From the NCBI GenBank assembly GCA_964016885.1, contig OZ024740.1, positions 299,894,001 through 299,958,000 on the forward strand: DNA of 64,000 nt. Reading direction: 5' to 3'. A model generated the notes under the pieces. That model ran no database searches, had not been told where the DNA came from, and saw nothing but the letters and a program-made list of their open reading frames with translations. Positions 35,756-49,600 of the stretch are shown piece after piece. Every line of letters starts with the position of its first letter. Within the stretch, counting starts at the first letter, position 1. The stretch comes from Eledone cirrhosa. Its lineage: Eukaryota. Made by a program: the position numbers and the translations under genes.

Positions 35756-35839
35756 CAAAGGAATTGCGGTAAGGAAACAGATATACCATAACGCATCAGA
35801 GTACCTAATACTTAGGGTAGTAGAGTGAGAAATAGGAAA

Positions 35840-35947
35840 AAGTATTTCCCCGACGGCAGAGCTCAAGTCGTTTCGACGGATATTTCTGGACTAAATTAGA
35901 ATTTTTAGCCTGGTGAATAAATAGCCGAACTTGTCAAGGGGGTACTT
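35840..35947 (-). ncRNA. Hammerhead with U3-A8 core in left pLTR
   Basis: AAGUA C CCCC-UUGACAA-G..long stem II..C-GAAA-CGAC..GCC-GUC-GGGG AAA UACUU. Confidence 0.7.
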
Positions 35948-36357
35948 CCATAAATGGGAAGATTGCAGTTGTCAAAAGAATTCGTTAAAATTTGTTGTAA
36001 ACACAAATACGTCTATCATGGCATTTGGTGGGAGGTAGGGGTGGCTGAACTTGCCTGTAGAACTATAGGGGAGTGAGTGGAGCGGTCAAGCGTTGAAAGT
36101 GATATGTATACAGCATATTCTAAGGATAGTGTATGAAGTGGAGGAGGGAGGTTATAGAATAGGTAAATCGAATGAGAGTAGGAGACAATAAAAGATAATA
36201 GAAATAAATAAAAAATAAATATAAAATTAGATAGTGAGAAATGAATAAAAAATCACAATGCTATCTTACAATTACAGGTTAATAAGTTGAGAATAGAAAA
36301 AACTTGTCGAAATTGAGTAGTAACAAAACTGATACAAAATTAAAGGGGTTTAACAGT

Positions 36358-37528
36358 ATGGGCGCGAGGGATTCAGCCGAGGTCACATATTTTATAGGAT
36401 TATTCCTACTATTTAAACTCACCGAAATGTTTCCTGCATTCGGCGGTGGATTGTACCGGGATGATGAGCTCCTCACCCTCAAAGGGTACAACCCCAGTAG
36501 TACAGACCTGGCCCGTAAACAACTAATCAACTTCTCCCGGGACTGGGGATTTAAAATCACCCTACAATCGTCCCTAACGCTAGTCAATTTCCTGGACGTT
36601 ACCCTTAACCTCGAAAATGATCTGTACTACCCATACAGGAAACCAAACGACAGCCTGCACTACATCCACAGCCGCTCTAACCATCCTAGAAACATCACCA
36701 ATAACCTGGTTAAAAACAACTCCCTCCGCATATCTCGTTTGTCCGCTAATGAGCAGATATTCGACGAACACGCGCCTCAAGCGGAGTGGCCTCCGGGAGG
36801 AAATATCCTTTTATCCAGCCTCCCTTAGCGGAACCGGCAGGCGACACCGCCGATCACGCCACGTAACGTGGTTCAATCCTCCCCATAATGCTGAGGTGGC
36901 AACACCTATCGAGAAAATCTTCTTTAGACTCCTCGAAAAACACTTCCAACTACAACACTGCTACCACAACATAATCAACAGAAACACCATCAAACTCTCC
37001 TACAGCGCCACACTTAACTTCACACAAAACATCGTCTCGTCAAACTCAACCCCTATGGAAGAAATAATCTAGACATCAGTGGAGAGCCGACCAGGAGGTG
37101 TAACTGCCCTGATAGTTCTACGTGTCCCCTCAACAACAGATGCCGAGAACGTAACGTGATCTACCAGTGCAACGTGAGGACGGACACCTCCAACAAAGCT
37201 TATATAGGATTAACCGCGTGTGACTTCAAGACCCGGCTCTACCAACACCGACATACTTTCCGAAACCAGGTCCGGCGACATGCCACTACACTTTCGGGCC
37301 ACATCTGGGACCTGAAAGATAATAATATAACCTACAATTTCACTTGGAGCTTACTGTCCAGAGCTAACTCTTACACGGGAGGACGCCGTCCGTGTAACTT
37401 ATGCTCGGAGGAAACATTACAAATACTGATTTCGAAGGACCAACTCCTAAACAAGAAAGACAAACTGGTAAACACAGATTGCGTAGGACATACCTCGCCT
37501 TCAAACCCCATAACGACCCGTCTAGGTA
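36358..37528 (+). pseudogene. PLE RT (3' half) + GIY-YIG endonuclease, frameshifted
   Basis: MGARDSAEV, GLYRDD, NFLDVTLNL, YRKPN, SNHP, WFNPP, CNC..CPL..C, VIYQC..AYIGLT..FKTRLYQH, CNLCSEE. Confidence 0.92.
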
Positions 37529-38212
37529 GACAAGGGCTGATACCCCCCCATTTGGCGAATAAGTTAGGGGAAACCCCAGCTTACATAGGTAGATGTATCT
37601 CTTTTCTTTTCCTCTGTGTCTTCTTCTTCCCCCTATCTCATCCTATCACTTCTTTCCACTCCCTATTTTCTTCCTCGTCTGCTTTCCCCTTTCGCCTACC
37701 CCGACGCAGCCCATCATGCCTCTGTACTATCAGTTCCCCCACCCCTGTAATTTTAAGAAAGAATTGGCCGAATATGTTTTACTAACTACTTATAGCAGAT
37801 GTGTTAAACCCCTTTAATTTTGTATCATTTTTGTTACTACTCAATTTCTACATGTTTTTTTACTATTCTCATCTTATTAACCTGTAATTGTAAGATAGCA
37901 TTGTGATTTTTTTTATTCATTTCTCACTATCTAATTTTATATATTTTTTTTATTTCTTTCTATTATCTTTTATTGTCTCCTACTCTCATTCGATTTACCT
38001 ATTCTATAACCTCCTTCCTCCACTTCATACACTATCCTTAGAATCTGCTGTATACATATCACATTCAACGCTTGACCGCTCCACTCACTCCCCTATTCTT
38101 CTACAGACAAGTTCAGCCACCCTATCTCTCACCAAATGCCATGATAGACTTATTTGTGTTTACAACAAATTTTAACCAATCTTCTTGACAACTACAATCT
38201 TTCCATATAAGG

Positions 38213-38320
38213 AAGTACCCCTTTGACAAGTTCGGCTATTTATTCACCATGCTAAAAATTCTAATTTAGTCCAGAAATAGCCGTCGAAACGGCTTGAGCT
38301 CTTCCGTCGGGGTCATACTT
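38213..38320 (+). ncRNA. Hammerhead with U3-A8 core in right pLTR
   Basis: AAGUACCCCU-UUGACAA-GUUCGGCUAUUU..AAAUAGCCGUC-GAAA-CGG..CC-GUC-GGGGUCAUACUU. Confidence 0.75.
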
Positions 38321-38364
<44 letters not shown>

Positions 38365-38517
38365 ATAAATGCTCTGAAATAGCGATATATATGTGAATAT
38401 AGACATAGAATATTCGAAAATATTCTGTATGTTTATAATAAACATTTTGAAGACCTAATCGCTATAGAATAGAATACGTCACGTATTACAATTAGATTCT
38501 CGATAAAAGCAAGGGAA

Positions 38518-38560
38518 GTAATCTACGCGTTTCATTCTCGTTAGAAATCATCAGGACTAC
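38518..38560 (-). ncRNA. Minimal type I hammerhead, first of 7 minus-strand copies (period 310, last at 40378-40420)
   Basis: GUAGUC-CUGAUGA-UUUCU AACG AGAAU-GAAA-CGC-GUA-GAUUAC; palindromic stem III ACGCGU. Confidence 0.92.
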
Positions 38561-40771
38561 ATATCCAGTGCTTTTATCGAGAATGACACAGCTAGAGACT
38601 TATAGAATACTTAGCTGTGTACAGGAACTGGTTTGAAAGAGCGGTTGCCGGTCCGGCAGAAATTAGAAATTGGAATAAATGCTCTGAAATAGCGATATAT
38701 ATGTGAATATAGACATAGAATATTCGAAAATATTCTGTATGTTTATAATAAACATTTTGAAGACCTAATCGCTATAGAATAGAATACGTCACGTATTACA
38801 ATTAGATTCTCGATAAAAGCAAGGGAAGTAATCTACGCGTTTCATTCTCGTTAGAAATCATCAGGACTACATATCCAGTGCTTTTATCGAGAATGACACA
38901 GCTAGAGACTTATAGAATACTTAGCTGTGTACAGGAACTGGTTTGAAAGAGCGGTTGCCGGTCCGGCAGAAATTAGAAATTGGAATAAATGCTCTGAAAT
39001 AGCGATATATATGTGAATATAGACATAGAATATTCGAAAATATTCTGTATGTTTATAATAAACATTTTGAAGACCTAATCGCTATAGAATAGAATACGTC
39101 ACGTATTACAATTAGATTCTCGATAAAAGCAAGGGAAGTAATCTACGCGTTTCATTCTCGTTAGAAATCATCAGGACTACATATCCAGTGCTTTTATCGA
39201 GAATGACACAGCTAGAGACTTATAGAATACTTAGCTGTGTACAGGAACTGGTTTGAAAGAGCGGTTGCCGGTCCGGCAGAAATTAGAAATTGGAATAAAT
39301 GCTCTGAAATAGCGATATATATGTGAATATAGACATAGAATATTCGAAAATATTCTGTATGTTTATAATAAACATTTTGAAGACCTAATCGCTATAGAAT
39401 AGAATACGTCACGTATTACAATTAGATTCTCGATAAAAGCAAGGGAAGTAATCTACGCGTTTCATTCTCGTTAGAAATCATCAGGACTACATATCCAGTG
39501 CTTTTATCGAGAATGACACAGCTAGAGACTTATAGAATACTTAGCTGTGTACAGGAACTGGTTTGAAAGAGCGGTTGCCGGTCCGGCAGAAATTAGAAAT
39601 TGGAATAAATGCTCTGAAATAGCGATATATATGTGAATATAGACATAGAATATTCGAAAATATTCTGTATGTTTATAATAAACATTTTGAAGACCTAATC
39701 GCTATAGAATAGAATACGTCACGTATTACAATTAGATTCTCGATAAAAGCAAGGGAAGTAATCTACGCGTTTCATTCTCGTTAGAAATCATCAGGACTAC
39801 ATATCCAGTGCTTTTATCGAGAATGACACAGCTAGAGACTTATAGAATACTTAGCTGTGTACAGGAACTGGTTTGAAAGAGCGGTTGCCGGTCCGGCAGA
39901 AATTAGAAATTGGAATAAATGCTCTGAAATAGCGATATATATGTGAATATAGACATAGAATATTCGAAAATATTCTGTATGTTTATAATAAACATTTTGA
40001 AGACCTAATCGCTATAGAATAGAATACGTCACGTATTACAATTAGATTCTCGATAAAAGCAAGGGAAGTAATCTACGCGTTTCATTCTCGTTAGAAATCA
40101 TCAGGACTACATATCCAGTGCTTTTATCGAGAATGACACAGCTAGAGACTTATAGAATACTTAGCTGTGTACAGGAACTGGTTTGAAAGAGCGGTTGCCG
40201 GTCCGGCAGAAATTAGAAATTGGAATAAATGCTCTGAAATAGCGATATATATGTGAATATAGACATAGAATATTCGAAAATATTCTGTATGTTTATAATA
40301 AACATTTTGAAGACCTAATCGCTATAGAATAGAATACGTCACGTATTACAATTAGATTCTCGATAAAAGCAAGGGAAGTAATCTACGCGTTTCATTCTCG
40401 TTAGAAATCATCAGGACTACATATCCAGTGCTTTTATCGAGAATGACACAGCTAGAGACTTATAGAATACTTAGCTGTGTACAGGAATGAAACGCGTAGA
40501 TTACTTCCCTTGCTTTTATCGAGAATCTAATTGTAATACGTGACGTATTCTATTCTATAGCGATTAGGTCTTCAAAATGTTTATTATAAACATACAGAAT
40601 ATTTTCGAATATTCTATGTCTATATTCACATATATATCGCTATTTCAGAGCATTTATTCCAATTTCTAATTTCTGCCGGACCGGCAACCGCTCTTTCAAA
40701 CCAGTTCCTGTACACAGCTAAGTATTCTATAAGTCTCTAGCTGTGTCATTCTCGATAAAAGCACTGGATAT

Positions 40772-40814
40772 GTAGTCCTGATGATTTCTAACGAGAATGA
40801 AACGCGTAGATTAC
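40772..40814 (+). ncRNA. Minimal type I hammerhead, first of 3 plus-strand copies (also 41082-41124, 41392-41434)
   Basis: Same motif; stem I is extended by a 16-bp helix AUUCUCGAUAAAAGCA/UGCUUUUAUCGAGAAU. Confidence 0.92.
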
Positions 40815-41563
40815 TTCCCTTGCTTTTATCGAGAATCTAATTGTAATACGTGACGTATTCTATTCTATAGCGATTAGGTCTTCAAAATGTTTATTATAAA
40901 CATACAGAATATTTTCGAATATTCTATGTCTATATTCACATATATATCGCTATTTCAGAGCATTTATTCCAATTTCTAATTTCTGCCGGACCGGCAACCG
41001 CTCTTTCAAACCAGTTCCTGTACACAGCTAAGTATTCTATAAGTCTCTAGCTGTGTCATTCTCGATAAAAGCACTGGATATGTAGTCCTGATGATTTCTA
41101 ACGAGAATGAAACGCGTAGATTACTTCCCTTGCTTTTATCGAGAATCTAATTGTAATACGTGACGTATTCTATTCTATAGCGATTAGGTCTTCAAAATGT
41201 TTATTATAAACATACAGAATATTTTCGAATATTCTATGTCTATATTCACATATATATCGCTATTTCAGAGCATTTATTCCAATTTCTAATTTCTGCCGGA
41301 CCGGCAACCGCTCTTTCAAACCAGTTCCTGTACACAGCTAAGTATTCTATAAGTCTCTAGCTGTGTCATTCTCGATAAAAGCACTGGATATGTAGTCCTG
41401 ATGATTTCTAACGAGAATGAAACGCGTAGATTACTTCCCTTGCTTTTATCGAGAATCTAATTGTAATACGTGACGTATTCTATTCTATAGCGATTAGGTC
41501 TTCAAAATGTTTATTATAAACATACAGAATATTTTCGAATATTCTATGTCTATATTCATATAT

Positions 41564-41619
<56 letters not shown>

Positions 41620-44450: not shown

Positions 44451-46662
44451 GATTTAGACAAGTCCAGCCTCCTGTTATTTTATTATAATAATTAACTCCC
44501 TACCAACTACACAAACGAAGACGGGTGAGCTGCATTACGTTGAGTACTCTCCATAATATTACATCGAGATTGACCATACAGAATGACCAACTCTATCCAG
44601 TGGTGAACCAACAAACCTAAATAAATAATGCTCCAGAAATTTTGAGCGCTTTCATATGTAATAATGAACAGCGGCACTGACTCCAGTGTACAGCTATCAC
44701 CAGCATGGGATTAACTGATCTAATTACCATTCGGATTTTGGCTGCTCTGTGCTTTGTCTACCGCCCATCTGGTCCAATGCTGCTTCCCTGTCCGGAATAT
44801 TCAGACTTCGACAAAATTCTACGGATTATACTATAACCTGTATGGTATTGACTGAATTCTCTACCCTATACTTCAGGGCTTTTGTGATTCACACTGAATT
44901 CTGAGACTCGAACATACATTAATATCACCTGATACCATTCCATCTCTTCCATCCTCTATATCTATATGTATTTCTAACTGCAACTTGATCTATATTGTAT
45001 TTACCCTGTGTTTTGATTTCTCCGATATGTTCTTATATACTTCCGTTTTACTCCATCACCGCCCTAGCTATAACGGCATTTTATTTATGCATTTTTACTT
45101 TATTAATGTATTTTTATCTTTGTATTCTGCTTTTATCTATTTATGTATTTTTGCTTATTATTCCTTTTATTTAGGTTTTTACTCGCTTTACTCTCATTAT
45201 GTACTTATCATTGTACTCATTAGCACACGACACTAGAATATTACTCTCTGTACCCTTATATCTCCCCCTATCCACCAAAGAACCACACTACTTATAACCC
45301 GGACTAACTGGGGACTTAAATATAGTCTATTTGCGCATTTCATCGGGTTTTACCACTTTCAACCACACATCACGGGTGTGAATATATAATAATCGTTCGG
45401 TTACACGTGATGATCTGACTGATGTGGTGGCTTTCCCGGCTGCGCGCCTGGCGCTCTGGTGCATAAGCCTTCCTTGAGTGCTTGGAAAAATAAATTTCCT
45501 CTTCTTTCGGTAAATGAAACTACTCGAATCGGTTGCTTCGCCCCGGGCGGGCCGCGCCGCCGGTTTTGACCACCATATAGTACCTTTAAATTCTAGGCCT
45601 AATCATAACTATTAGCTGTATCATGCCTCCCTCTACTGGCACGTAAACCTGTGTGAATTAATAGTATTCGTTTGGTATAGCGATGGCCTGACGACGATGG
45701 CAGACTTCCCGCTAACACACCCGAATCCTAAGACAGTTACATTCCTGGAGTACTCGGAAAAATTAATTTCCATCTCTTTCGCTAGACGATATCACTCGGA
45801 ACGGGTGAGACGTGGTTAGGAAGGGCTGGCCGGAGTCTGCAGTCGTCGCGTGTTATTGACTGCTAAACAAGGGCTTAATCTTCACTCTATATCCCACCCT
45901 GAAAACTTATCGAGAATCTCTATAATGCACTTAAACATTTTCATAAAAAGACTCTCTCTGTAAATTCTTTAACTAAATCTCGCAACCCAAACCTTAAACT
46001 TTTTTTAATTTTTTAATTTTTTTAATTTCATCCTATAACTCTAAACATGAGTTTAACGTTCCAATTTTCTGTTCATACATTATACCATACAGACGCCCAC
46101 TATATATGCCTCTGTTAGGATTTAGATTCTTTGGAAAAACATTTTTCGCGGCAATTTCTAGCCTGATTGTAGCATGACCTTAACGCTGACTTTTCTTCTT
46201 ACTTCCTTTCTTCTTTTTTTCTCTTTGACGGGAAGGTAGTAGCACATTATAAGCTTCGCCCCCTCACCAGATGGTCATAAGTAGAACGAATAGCCAATAC
46301 TTGAGGGCGACCGACTAAAGTAGAAGACGCTAGATGGTCGGTCGTGCTCTTGTCTATGATTTTCAGCCCCATGGATTTTATCTGTTATATTCCTTTGTTA
46401 TATTTCGAATACCTGATGATATCAGCGGATTCATACGGAGCCCGGTCATTGAAATGATCATAGTATAATAAACCTTTCAAGGATTTACACAAGTCCAGCC
46501 TCCTGTTATTTTATTATAATAATTAACTCCGTACTCGCACCACCAACTACACAAACGAAGACGGGTGAGCTGCATTACGTTGAGTACTCTCCATAAGATT
46601 ACATCGAGACTGACCATACGGAATGACCAACTCTATCCAGTGGGGAGCCAACAAACATAAAT
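44451..46662 (+). mobile_element. 2.03-kb non-coding hammerhead element with ~175-bp terminal direct repeat
   Basis: gattta.acaagtccagcctcctg.. at 44451 and 46482 (period 2031). HHR plus AATAAA just before the second copy; (TA)n flanks; no credible ORF. Confidence 0.85.
46409..46466 (+). ncRNA. Type I hammerhead (stem II degenerate)
   Basis: AUAC-CUGAUGA-..-GAAA-UGAUC-AUA-GUAU, then AAUAAA; palindromic stem III AUGAUCAU. Confidence 0.8.
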
Positions 46663-46671
46663 ATATATATA

Positions 46672-49600
46672 TATAAACGTTTGGAGTTAGAAGGCCAGAA
46701 CAAGGTAGGTATGGATATAGAATATAAATACAAATGCAAAAGATATTGCTGACAATTAGTCTTTTACCTTAAATTTATTTGAATATCCTTAATTTTCGAG
46801 ATAATATCTATTCTTCGGGAAGTAAAGGGAAGTAAAGGGGTTAATCCAGTGTTCTAATAACCTTGCCAAGTCATACTGACAGAAAAGAGTATAGAAATTC
46901 CATTCTATTTCTAATGTCAAAGAGTGAAGGTTAGGTGGAGAAAGGGTTGTCTCCCTTTAAATAGGTTTGGACATGTATGTCTAAGTGTGTGTGGGAGAAT
47001 ACGTGAAGGTGTAAGCATGCGTGTGTGTGTGTGTGTGTGAGTGTGAGAGGATATGTTTATATGTAAATGTGGAGGCTCTATCATGTTAAAACTGGTCTAT
47101 ATATGTGTATGTGTGGGTGTGAGAGAGAATAAGTGAAGGTGTAAGCGTGTGTGTGTGTGTGTGCGTGTGTGTGTGTGTGAGATGGTACGTGGAGGTGTAA
47201 GTGTGGGGGCTAGGTGCTCTATCATGTTAAAAATTGGGTGTTGAGTTCTAGTCTGGTATTGATTGGTGGTTGTGTTTTGTCTAAAATTACTGCTTCTTTA
47301 ATTCTAAGATTGCCGAGGTTTCTTTCCTTAGCGTCTATCCTAACTATTATGTTTTTGTCGGTATTTATGCATTTCACTAGGTGTTTCTTAAATGAGGAAG
47401 CATTAGTGTTGAGGTGTTCTTTTATTCTAATGTGAAGTGGTCTGGTGGTGCTATGTATGTAGAAATTGCTGCACACTTGTCGCACTCTAGTCTGTATACG
47501 ACGTAAGCCTGGTGGCATAGGTGTGTCATCGATGGGGCAGTTGGCTCGCCTGCAGCGGATGTCATGTCTGGTAGAGTGTCTGTCGGTTAGCTGTCCGCGT
47601 AGAGAAGGTCCTGAGTGGGCTAGCTGGATATTTAGTCCCTCTCGTCTGATAGCTCTGCGGATGGCTGTTGGTGTTTCGTCACTGACGTGTGGGAGCTTTA
47701 GGAAGCAGGTGTTAGTGCCTCGGGTGTGGTGTCCTCTGTTGTTTCAGGCATGGTTCGCGGTGGACGTCGGGTATCTGTTCAGTTTAAGTACTTCCAGGAA
47801 ATGTGTGGTGTGCGTGTCTCGGTCTCTTGTGTCGGTGCATTTGTTCCAGATACGTGTTAGTACGCTCCTTATGTATCCGAACTTAGCGCTGACTGGGAGG
47901 GCTGATCTGAAATGTACCAACAGGTCCCTGCTGGCGGCTTTTTTATAGAAGCAGGTGTGGATGTCGCCTTCCTCTGTTACCCTGAGTTGGAAGTCCAAAA
48001 GGGATAGGGATCCGCGGTCATCGGGATGTTCCATGCTGAAGTTTATATTGGCGTCCATGCTGGAGAATGTCATGTATATTTTATCCGCTTCCTCACAGGA
48101 TGATGTAAGGATGAGTAGGTCATCTACATATCGGGTGAAGAAGGTATAGGAATGGCAGGTGTTGAGGGCTCGGCATTCCAGCTGGTTCATATAAGTGATG
48201 GTCAGCAGGCCCGATAGGCTGGATCCCACGGGTAATCCTGTTGTCTGTCTGTATGTGTGGTGCTGGAAGGTGAGGTACGTGTTGTCCACTGTGAAGGACA
48301 AAAGCTGGTGTATGTCTGTCGGATGGAGGCCGTAGCAGTAGAGGTCTTCTGAAACCATTCAGTCCGTCAATAAATCGAGAGCTGGATGAGCGGGGACTGT
48401 AGTGTAGAGGGAGACAACGTGGAGGCTAAAGGCGTAACTATTTAGTTTAAGTTGTTCTGGCTGGAGTTGCTGTAGTCTACGCATGACCTCGTCAGAGCTA
48501 CTGACATGCCCGGAAAAGGTGGAGAGTAGAGGCTTGAGGATCTGGGAGACGAGCCAGGAGAGTTTGTATAGGGGACCTTCTATGCTAGAGATGATGGGTC
48601 TTATTTGTGTTTAGTAATATTCTTTTGGGTCTTGATGAGGTGATAGAAAGTGGGCAGTCTGCTATTTCTAGTGGTGTAATTGAACTTAAATTTATTTGGG
48701 AGTTGTCTTCTACTACAGATGTCGAACCAGATGGAGTTGGCCTGCTTTTCGATCTTGGCTGCAGTTATGTCGGGGACCTCTCTATACAGTTCGTTGTCGC
48801 TTAAGTGTTCAAATGATAGCTTGAGAGATGACACAAAACTCGTTACCTTTGTCGGATGGTAAGTATATGAGTTCCCTATTCCGCAGGTTCTTCAGGGCGA
48901 GTTGTTGCGTCCTGGAGAGGTTTGGCGCTATCTTCTTCTGTTTCCGTAAGATGTTAAATATTGAATGTTTTAATTTTTCTTCCAGCTTGTGGTTGGCAGA
49001 CGGTGGACAGAGTGGGTAGTCCAGTTGGTATATCGGGAATCTGGTTGTGTTAGATTCCGTGGTGTTGTTGCCCACGGTCGATATCCATTTTAGTTGGTAG
49101 GCGGCCCGACAGAAATTTGTTTCTATGTCGAGCCATAATTTGTCGTCCAGACTCTGTTTCAATATGAATTTGAGACCCAGGCTGAGGAAGTCTAGTTCAT
49201 CTCGGGAGAGGGATCCTGTCAAGTCTGTGACAAGGTGTTTTGCGTCAGGTTTGTTGTAGGTGGGGGCGCCGCTAGGTTCGATGTTGGTACCGTCTTGTTC
49301 GCCTCTGTTGGTGCTTAGAGTTGGGTTGTTGTTAGGACGGTCAGCCGTGTTGAGCTTGATACATTTTTTGCTTTAGTCGTATTTTCTTAAAATCTCTGCG
49401 ATGGTGGAAGGACCTGTCTATAGCGGCGAAAATTACTCTGTGCAGAGGTTCTGGGGTTTCAGCGAGTCGTGGTACTAGGCTGGAAATTGTCCGTATGTGT
49501 TGTTGCAGCGTGCAGTGTAGGTGTTGTATGAGTTTTCTTATGCAGAATTTTTTGTATGTAGCTAAGTAATCGTTTGAGGCCTGGTGATTGGAAGCATGTT

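Follow-up and report, generated by a model that had tools for sequence, protein, structure and literature searches.

A duplicated, predicted structured RNA motif within a non-autonomous Penelope-like element

Results

The locus and the element that carries the motif

The window, the 64-kb stretch of DNA analysed here at its full length, contains one insertion of a non-autonomous Penelope-like element that harbours two copies of a predicted structured RNA motif between a terminal repeat and a minimal hammerhead (Table 1).

Table 1. Features of the element insertion, in positions of the window
Feature	Position	Strand	Remarks
One insertion of a non-autonomous Penelope-like element	44451–46675	+	Unit of ~2.04 kb plus terminal redundancy, between (TA)n tracts, without a long ORF
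Upstream terminal repeat (leader/tail piece)	44451–44627	+	90% identity to 46482–46667
Predicted splice donor, GT at 44525–44526	44522–44530	+	GTGAGT in older lineages, a weaker site in younger ones; predicted from sequence only
Motif copy A, short type	45418–45581	+	Stalk apparently rebuilt in a shifted register after 17–19 nt were deleted from the 3′ strand
Core of copy A, predicted three-way junction	45476–45525	+	Closing helix GAGUG/UACUC; hairpin GGAAA-6 nt-UUUCC (45484–45499); pyrimidine linker; hairpin UUUCG-5 nt-UGAAA (45505–45519)
Motif copy B, long type	45670–45868	+	Rod of ~200 nt, basal helix GUUUGG/CUAAAC, −70.5 kcal/mol
Core of copy B	45748–45797	+	Same predicted three-way junction as copy A
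Predicted branch point, polypyrimidine tract and YAG (splice-acceptor-like module)	46180–46242	+	Multiplied in young lineages; prediction as for the donor
GC-rich hairpin, conserved, upstream of the hammerhead	46303–46349	+	Folding retained across lineages, z −3.7 versus neutral simulation
Minimal type I hammerhead motif (predicted)	46409–46466	+	4-bp helix I, CUGAUGA, long helix II that begins with U-U, GAAA, the palindrome UGAUCA; cleavage predicted 3′ of 46462
AATAAA and leader/tail	46467–46675	+	Copies stop at two fixed points, about +50–69 and +190–229 from the predicted cut

Judged by its sequence, the host repeat is a non-autonomous Penelope-like element or retrozyme, a known kind of element, with a hammerhead, tandem and inverted insertions, two 3′ ends and no coding capacity. 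All motif and repeat counts given below refer to the one animal genome searched (3.0 Gb, with animal-type repeats). The 461-bp motif region gave 1,807 first-look candidates in this genome, of which the 40 scored were 86–93% identical, and a 27-nt piece of the hammerhead gave 5,287 exact matches (control, 0). Minimal type I hammerheads of such design are known from Penelope-like elements (PMC4209133); the Rfam search gave the hammerhead motif of the window no score. Insertions occur as partial tandems and inverted arms flanked by (TA)n. Copies retrieved through the hammerhead are mostly 5′-truncated, and among the matches listed, those that are long enough contain the motif core and have no ORF inside the element. 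The 3′ ends of 280 distinct copies concentrate at two places behind the predicted hammerhead cut (123 at 50–69 nt and 113 at 190–229 nt), a pattern like the two-start-site tail described for Penelope elements (PMC11167929). The different 3′ end at L066 was ruled out as a variant terminus, being a separate insertion.

No reverse transcriptase or endonuclease frame was found in any unit examined. Three old-lineage copies carry a related open frame of ~120 aa (119–176 codons) in the 5′ body, on minus strands (L337:2421–2948, L361:2509–2871 and L364:2309–2665), which is broken in other copies and gave no Pfam or database match, the databases having been compared at lengths 65–209 only. The genome holds 62,702 first-look Penelope candidates; two ORF-bearing Penelope families lying nearby were compared with the element, and their ends are unrelated to its terminal repeat, leaving no autonomous partner found among them. 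The element family is present in three sequencing runs of unspecified kind and in one DNA run, which have no bearing on expression, and the sequencing-run search listed no RNA run as holding it. Five near-identical old-lineage copies (L338 and L342–L345) lie within 25 kb at G000:C4:77.586–77.611 Mb, probably as a result of DNA-level tandem expansion.

The window also includes repeats of other kinds. Two opposed arrays of a 310-bp unit occupy 38352–41600, each unit with a hammerhead motif of another family, which is also found at L350. An inverted-end element at 35832–38328 contains broken pieces of a Penelope-type ORF that match P0001 at 40–42% (36355–36768 and 36821–37066). A reverse transcriptase fragment on the minus strand (47747–48358; Pfam RVT_1, E 2.6e-10) is unrelated to the element, and three more hammerhead-like cores at about 7566 (+), 7466 (−) and 2066 (−) belong to other repeat families.

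The two motif copies

The initial annotation described two copies, 272 bp apart, of a ~165-nt structured motif with a shared core. The copies and the core are borne out: a 66-nt block occurs twice with 76% identity (45470–45535 and 45742–45807, 272 nt apart), and a covariance model of the motif detects only these two copies within the 64-kb window. The size agrees with the extent of copy A but not with that of copy B, which is longer (Table 1). The minimum-energy fold of copy A (z −3.5; 0 of 200 shuffles as good) contains all three helices named for it. For copy B, the helices ACGAC/GUCGU and GCAGACUU/GAGUCUGC are found in the fold, whereas CACCCG/CGGGUG is private to the window copy, CGGGTG occurring, of 30 aligned loci, only in L001, which is the window; cut at the bounds of the initial annotation, this copy does not stand out in folding (z −1.4; 19 of 200 shuffles as good).

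The closing helices of the two copies had been taken for covarying counterparts, but they are not homologous pairs. Because the copy A lineage lost 17–19 nt of the 3′ strand and its pairs shifted, the difference between the copies is one of re-registration rather than base-for-base covariation. Likewise, the motif is present twice, as had been said, but not through local duplication: it is part of a high-copy mobile element.

Lineages and duplication history

A genome-wide search for exact matches to the core pattern gave 1,743, and one with the reversed control gave none. We gathered 210 distinct motif copies in 67 clusters, most of the loci having been retrieved through the core. The tests described below used 26 long-type and 13 short-type rows; the 28 clusters omitted were mostly chimeric, truncated or single damaged copies. 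In a tree of 33 rows, the first (A) and second (B) copies part on one branch (support 100/99) and the lineages are arranged like a ladder. The A and B copies of the oldest lineage are 92% alike and lie within a 360-nt tandem duplication, and the unconstrained fold of each is a rod of ~205 nt with a three-way junction at its tip (z −3.2 and −4.7; 0/100). On this tree, the A/B pair is the product of one ancestral duplication.

The junction consensus of 53 copies, which is also the RNAalifold result, comprises GAGUR/YACUC, a 3-nt linker, GGAAA-AAUWRA-UUUCY, a pyrimidine linker and UUUCG-SURRR-YGAWA. Between four lineage consensuses, identity in the core is 86–94% for A and 77–86% for B, compared with 40–89% (mostly 40–79%) in the stalk and 45–70% in the outer flanks, so that the core is conserved 20–40 points above neighbouring sequence. 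To escape the search bias toward the core, 30 loci were picked by an unrelated 5′-body pattern; 29 of these units contain the core (two cores in 24, one in 5), and the single coreless unit departs from the others where copy A begins. Among 28 complete units, 22 have two cores, 5 have one and 1 has three, and lineages without B often carry A twice (L038, L043, L068 and L210). The distance from motif to hammerhead ranges from 570 to 1,540 nt across units, a variable spacing that fits a position-independent element.

Tests for selection on the fold

The covariation that seemed apparent from the two window copies lies within a tree-aware null among homologues: 21 compensatory pairs were counted against 18.5±3.2 (104 of 400 as high; not significant), and 20 pairs changed on both sides against 17.2 expected (82 of 500 shuffles as high). 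The core helices are uninformative on pairing because they are nearly invariant, and could be DNA sites. Paired cells make up 77% compared with 68±2% in the null and 31–49% in slid controls, with a pair list derived from the same sequences.

Folding energy departs from neutral expectation. In tree-aware neutral simulation, the 26 long rows have a mean of −65.5 kcal/mol against −56.6±2.3 (0 of 40 as low), the simulated long set being slightly lower in GC (0.49 vs 0.52), and the 13 short rows have a mean of −65.7 kcal/mol against −55.3±2.4 (0 of 40 as low). Applied to individual copies, the neutral-simulation test gave z of −2.5 for A and −2.9 for B; as controls in the same test, three body regions gave +2.3, −0.3 and −0.3, the leader −2.2, the hammerhead −1.5 and the hairpin before the hammerhead −3.7. 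The sense strand is better in z for 17 of 20 consensus rows and has 79 consensus pairs against 48. Motif pairs include 233 G-U and 98 A-C cells, a count that rests on folding of the same sequences.

The clearest sign of selection on the fold appears to be the rebuilding of the stalk in new registers after deletions. Short-type A rows reach −65 to −72 kcal/mol, whereas long rows given the deletion in silico reach −49 to −59, a contrast that is favoured by the comparison of consensus rows with long rows that are mostly single copies bearing post-insertion changes. Two B lineages were likewise re-paired after deletions. The initial proposal of an RNA-level structure kept over sequence is upheld as to the folding, which is retained while the sequence changes, but not as to column covariation. 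Taken by these model-based measures, the motif is probably an RNA structure kept by selection, whatever its function.

The junction lies within the unconstrained best fold in 13 of 20 rows only. In copy A of three related lineages (c10–c12; L033, L053 and L182), a rival hairpin is 3–6 kcal/mol more stable than the junction fold, the 5′ stalk carrying a mimic of the 3′ strand of the core. Possibly, copy A of these lineages could act as a two-state switch.

Splice-like signals and a probably edited copy

Both motif copies sit between donor-like and acceptor-like sites. The module of branch point, pyrimidine tract and YAG is repeated several times 110–380 nt upstream of the hammerhead in units of young lineages (L063, L064, L067, L078, L175, L186 and L261), in which the donor-like site decays. 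We infer that the ~1.7-kb body is intron-like and is retained in genomic copies; no copy with a spliced junction was found among 8 genome-wide pattern matches and 372 loci. The intron reading is weakest in young lineages, L210 included, because the donor decays there. Penelope elements are described as retaining introns by a mechanism for which either an antisense or an unspliced sense template has been considered (PMC3846280), and the D. virilis Penelope is described as having a splice donor close behind its start (PMC2377424).

One copy, L210 (G000:C1:27331500–27337000, minus strand), differs from L043 by 121 A>G, 11 T>C and 4 G>A changes over 1,725 nt, and the A>G changes cluster in the 5′ half, across the two motif copies. 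This copy likely records ADAR hyper-editing fixed by reverse transcription, in which case the template would have been sense RNA of the motif's strand. An ADAR footprint in ordinary copies was rejected: a stalk excess of A>G (3.3% vs 1.9%) vanished when only private changes were counted (A>G 0.87%, T>C 0.82%).

Relation to known RNA families and elements

In line with the initial annotation, the motif matches no catalogued RNA family: Rfam has no gathering-score match in the window and, at E≤10, no hit that overlaps the motif there. Among the old-lineage loci, the only Rfam hit overlapping a motif copy is HTH-XRE at E 8.9. The motif has no tRNA likeness and no SRP match. A 5S origin, considered because of a resemblance, was rejected, since for 37 of 39 rows more than 7 of 300 shuffles scored as high against the host's own 5S gene; in a profile search, 5S did not rank above shuffles. 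Membership of three further classes was also rejected: box H/ACA RNAs (the box words overlap the basal helix, are not single-stranded and are lost in lineage c40), IRESs (no conserved start codon and ORF downstream) and CR4/5 (the loop is S-U-R-R-R, the second hairpin has 5 bp and the boxes overlap the helix).

Of 71 other loci searched with the covariance model, 58 belonging to two ORF-bearing Penelope families, none gave a significant hit; given its absence from those 58, the motif is no general Penelope solution. Two motif patterns gave no match in viral contigs, and searches of metagenomes and prokaryote genomes gave one match, inside an apparently bacterial coding sequence, and four matches, respectively, none significant by the covariance model (best E 0.12). 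A host gene as the source of the motif was rejected: the 17 matches to a pattern excluding the first hairpin are all family copies. With the first hairpin left unconstrained in the pattern there were 1,369 matches, the hairpin being present in all 100 that were listed. A U6-type promoter was likewise rejected, as 17 units contain no canonical octamer, the variant ATTTACAT occurs in 5 of them at unrelated places, and the only alignments are AT-rich chance ones. The host U6 genes (L315, L316, L317 and L330) carry a TATA box at about −30 and, at about −77, a word resembling the octamer.

Animal non-LTR retrozymes and non-autonomous Penelope-like elements, in the parts of their descriptions available to us, share with the element the lack of an ORF, a minimal type I hammerhead in a terminal repeat, partial-tandem and inverted insertions, a two-end tail and (TA)n targets, but a duplicated inner structured motif is absent from the same parts (bioRxiv 10.64898/2026.07.22.740005; PMC4209133; PMC8557442). 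The element further differs in its unit of ~1.9–2.6 kb, whereas the scan in the preprint extends to periods of 1,000 nt (bioRxiv 10.64898/2026.07.22.740005), and in occurring mostly as 5′-truncated copies, single or with two arms, instead of forming long arrays, without a U6-type promoter. In the literature searched, no description of such a motif was found and the inner motif appears to be new, while the host element is of an already known kind.

The HIV RRE stands beside the constitutive transport element (CTE) as a structured element in the retained intron of an RNA that is copied unspliced. The CTE loop contains the word AAGACA, which occurs in only 6 of 39 motif rows. The CTE of MPMV and NXF1 intron 10 is described as a structured element inside the retained intron of an RNA needing unspliced copying, with a conserved core on a long stem that is doubled in a mobile element (MPMV) (PMC4338338); the motif shares the core, the stem and the doubling, and may lie in a retained intron as well. 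In contrast, the core of the CTE is a loop within a stem that does not branch and that of the motif an apical three-way junction, and the element has no Rev-like ORF. The motif was rejected as a member of the CTE family, because it lacks the family's inner loop, which binds NXF1 and is conserved with homology in primary sequence.

Discussion

Alternative explanations

Several readings of the conserved core and its stalk can be weighed against one another. It is very unlikely that the motif has no function, being an ancestral GC-rich stretch carried along whose conservation is an artefact of search bias. Most loci were indeed retrieved through the core and the covariation is not significant, but the core is present in 29 of 30 units chosen by the unrelated 5′ pattern and is more conserved than its neighbours by the margin given above, and folding is retained beyond neutral simulation. 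A second catalytic RNA, of a new class, is highly improbable. Its junction nucleotides are invariant, and retroelements often carry ribozymes; against this, the motif resembles no known ribozyme family, the two fixed 3′ ends do not fall on it, and the element already has a hammerhead, so that the ribozyme role suggested by the initial annotation finds no positive evidence. An element acting as DNA, in which the core would consist of inverted transcription-factor sites forming an internal enhancer and the GC-rich flanks would fold as a by-product, is improbable. It would account for core helices that are nearly invariant inverted repeats and for a motif that is position-independent and duplicated, and internal regulatory DNA downstream of the start is described for Penelope (PMC2377424). 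However, stalk folding survives divergence and deletions, with strand asymmetry and a G-U bias, the three helices are nested in a geometry with fixed linkers, and there is no octamer or TATA box like that of the host U6 promoter.

Two other roles suggested at the outset were translation control, against which stands the lack of a conserved downstream ORF, and recruitment of the reverse transcriptase. The latter is less likely because the fixed 3′ ends lie behind the hammerhead (50–230 nt downstream of it), far from the motif (600–1,500 nt) and at variable distance. In its most specific form, the motif would bind the Penelope reverse transcriptase directly, in a topology like that of the CR4/5 junction (P5, P6 and P6.1) that binds telomerase reverse transcriptase; this we consider quite unlikely. 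The motif and CR4/5 of telomerase RNA share a three-way junction on a long stem and a short hairpin with a 5-nt loop (PMC8480181), U occupies loop position 2 in 52 of 53 copies, and Penelope reverse transcriptases are placed as sister to that of telomerase (PMC8557442). Yet the helix corresponding to P6 is only 5 bp long, G or C opens the loop in place of the conserved U-U, neither a template nor a pseudoknot is seen, the boxes are not single-stranded, and the two ORF-bearing Penelope families have no motif match. Moreover, an active Penelope is described as having its protein-binding and start region just behind the hammerhead (PMC11167929), like the two fixed ends of the element, and protostome telomerase RNAs are described as lacking CR4/5 (PMC8480181).

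A docking function comparable to that of Alu, a 7SL-derived dimeric SINE, in which the RNA, through its dimeric fold, would stay at ribosomes and capture newly made Penelope protein, is unlikely. Both are non-coding passengers with a head-to-tail dimer of structured RNA, which in the element persists through the ladder of lineages, and single-copy units remain viable, as Alu monomers can still move (10.1101/2024.05.03.592410). On the other side, the motif has no 7SL homology and no SRP, tRNA or 5S likeness, it is internal in a 2-kb RNA, ten times longer than Alu, rather than a small Pol III head, and the element ends in Penelope fashion without a poly(A) tail. Rather improbable is a processed small RNA, with each rod excised as a ~200-nt RNA (intron-encoded, H/ACA-like or a VA-like decoy) that would blunt Dicer, ADAR or other defences. 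The ancestral form has paired 5′ and 3′ ends, the motif lies between predicted splice sites, and ANANNA or ACA follows many copies; but the boxes overlap the basal helix and are absent in one large lineage, the basal helix itself is replaced in several lineages, there is no tRNA-like gene and no Rfam snoRNA match on the motif, and stalks show no excess of private A>G changes.

Proposed function

We tentatively propose that the motif is a docking element for a host protein, acting in cis in the stability or export of a full-length RNA with a retained intron-like body, in the manner of the CTE or RRE. This reading is suggested by a motif that is position-independent, doubled and built as a conserved core on a stem whose pairing outweighs its sequence, with no conserved ORF after it. 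Terminal repeats alone are described as sufficient to mobilise unrelated inner DNA (PMC3846280), and conservation inside the element would therefore need a cause other than recognition by the reverse transcriptase; together with start points behind the hammerhead, this makes it probable that the motif is not a priming signal.

Under the docking proposal, transcription would start from the terminal repeat, and an intron-like body of ~1.7 kb, with its donor in the leader and its acceptor before the hammerhead, would hold both motif copies. A host RNA-handling protein may bind at the three-way junction, with the variable stalk serving as a scaffold, and the second copy could bring a gain in avidity, an effect also proposed for the MPMV CTE with its doubled loop. 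Docking would protect or export the full-length, likely unspliced RNA, such that the Penelope enzyme receives it and copies it in trans, beginning at the two start points that follow the hammerhead.

A more far-reaching claim, which we hold to be doubtful, is that the motif represents a new class of structured RNA through which the intron-retaining sense RNA of a Penelope-class passenger would pass nuclear quality control and reach the transposition machinery, the first module in this class resembling the CTE/RRE or telomerase CR4/5. If so, the motif would come with an evolutionary series built in, of one duplication and repeated deletion and rebuilding of the stalk, and the edited copy would speak for an unspliced sense template in the question of sense versus antisense.

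Significance

Should the motif turn out to act as a DNA enhancer, or as a stability element of minor effect, its significance would fall to that of a well-described new repeat family. The motif is small and natural variants are at hand, making its fold, partner, export and transposition directly testable. In a passenger with thousands of copies, the core has been kept and the long stem apparently rebuilt through many lineages. Terminal repeats are thought to be sufficient for such passengers; a kept inner core of 60 nt on a rebuilt stem points to a second requirement.
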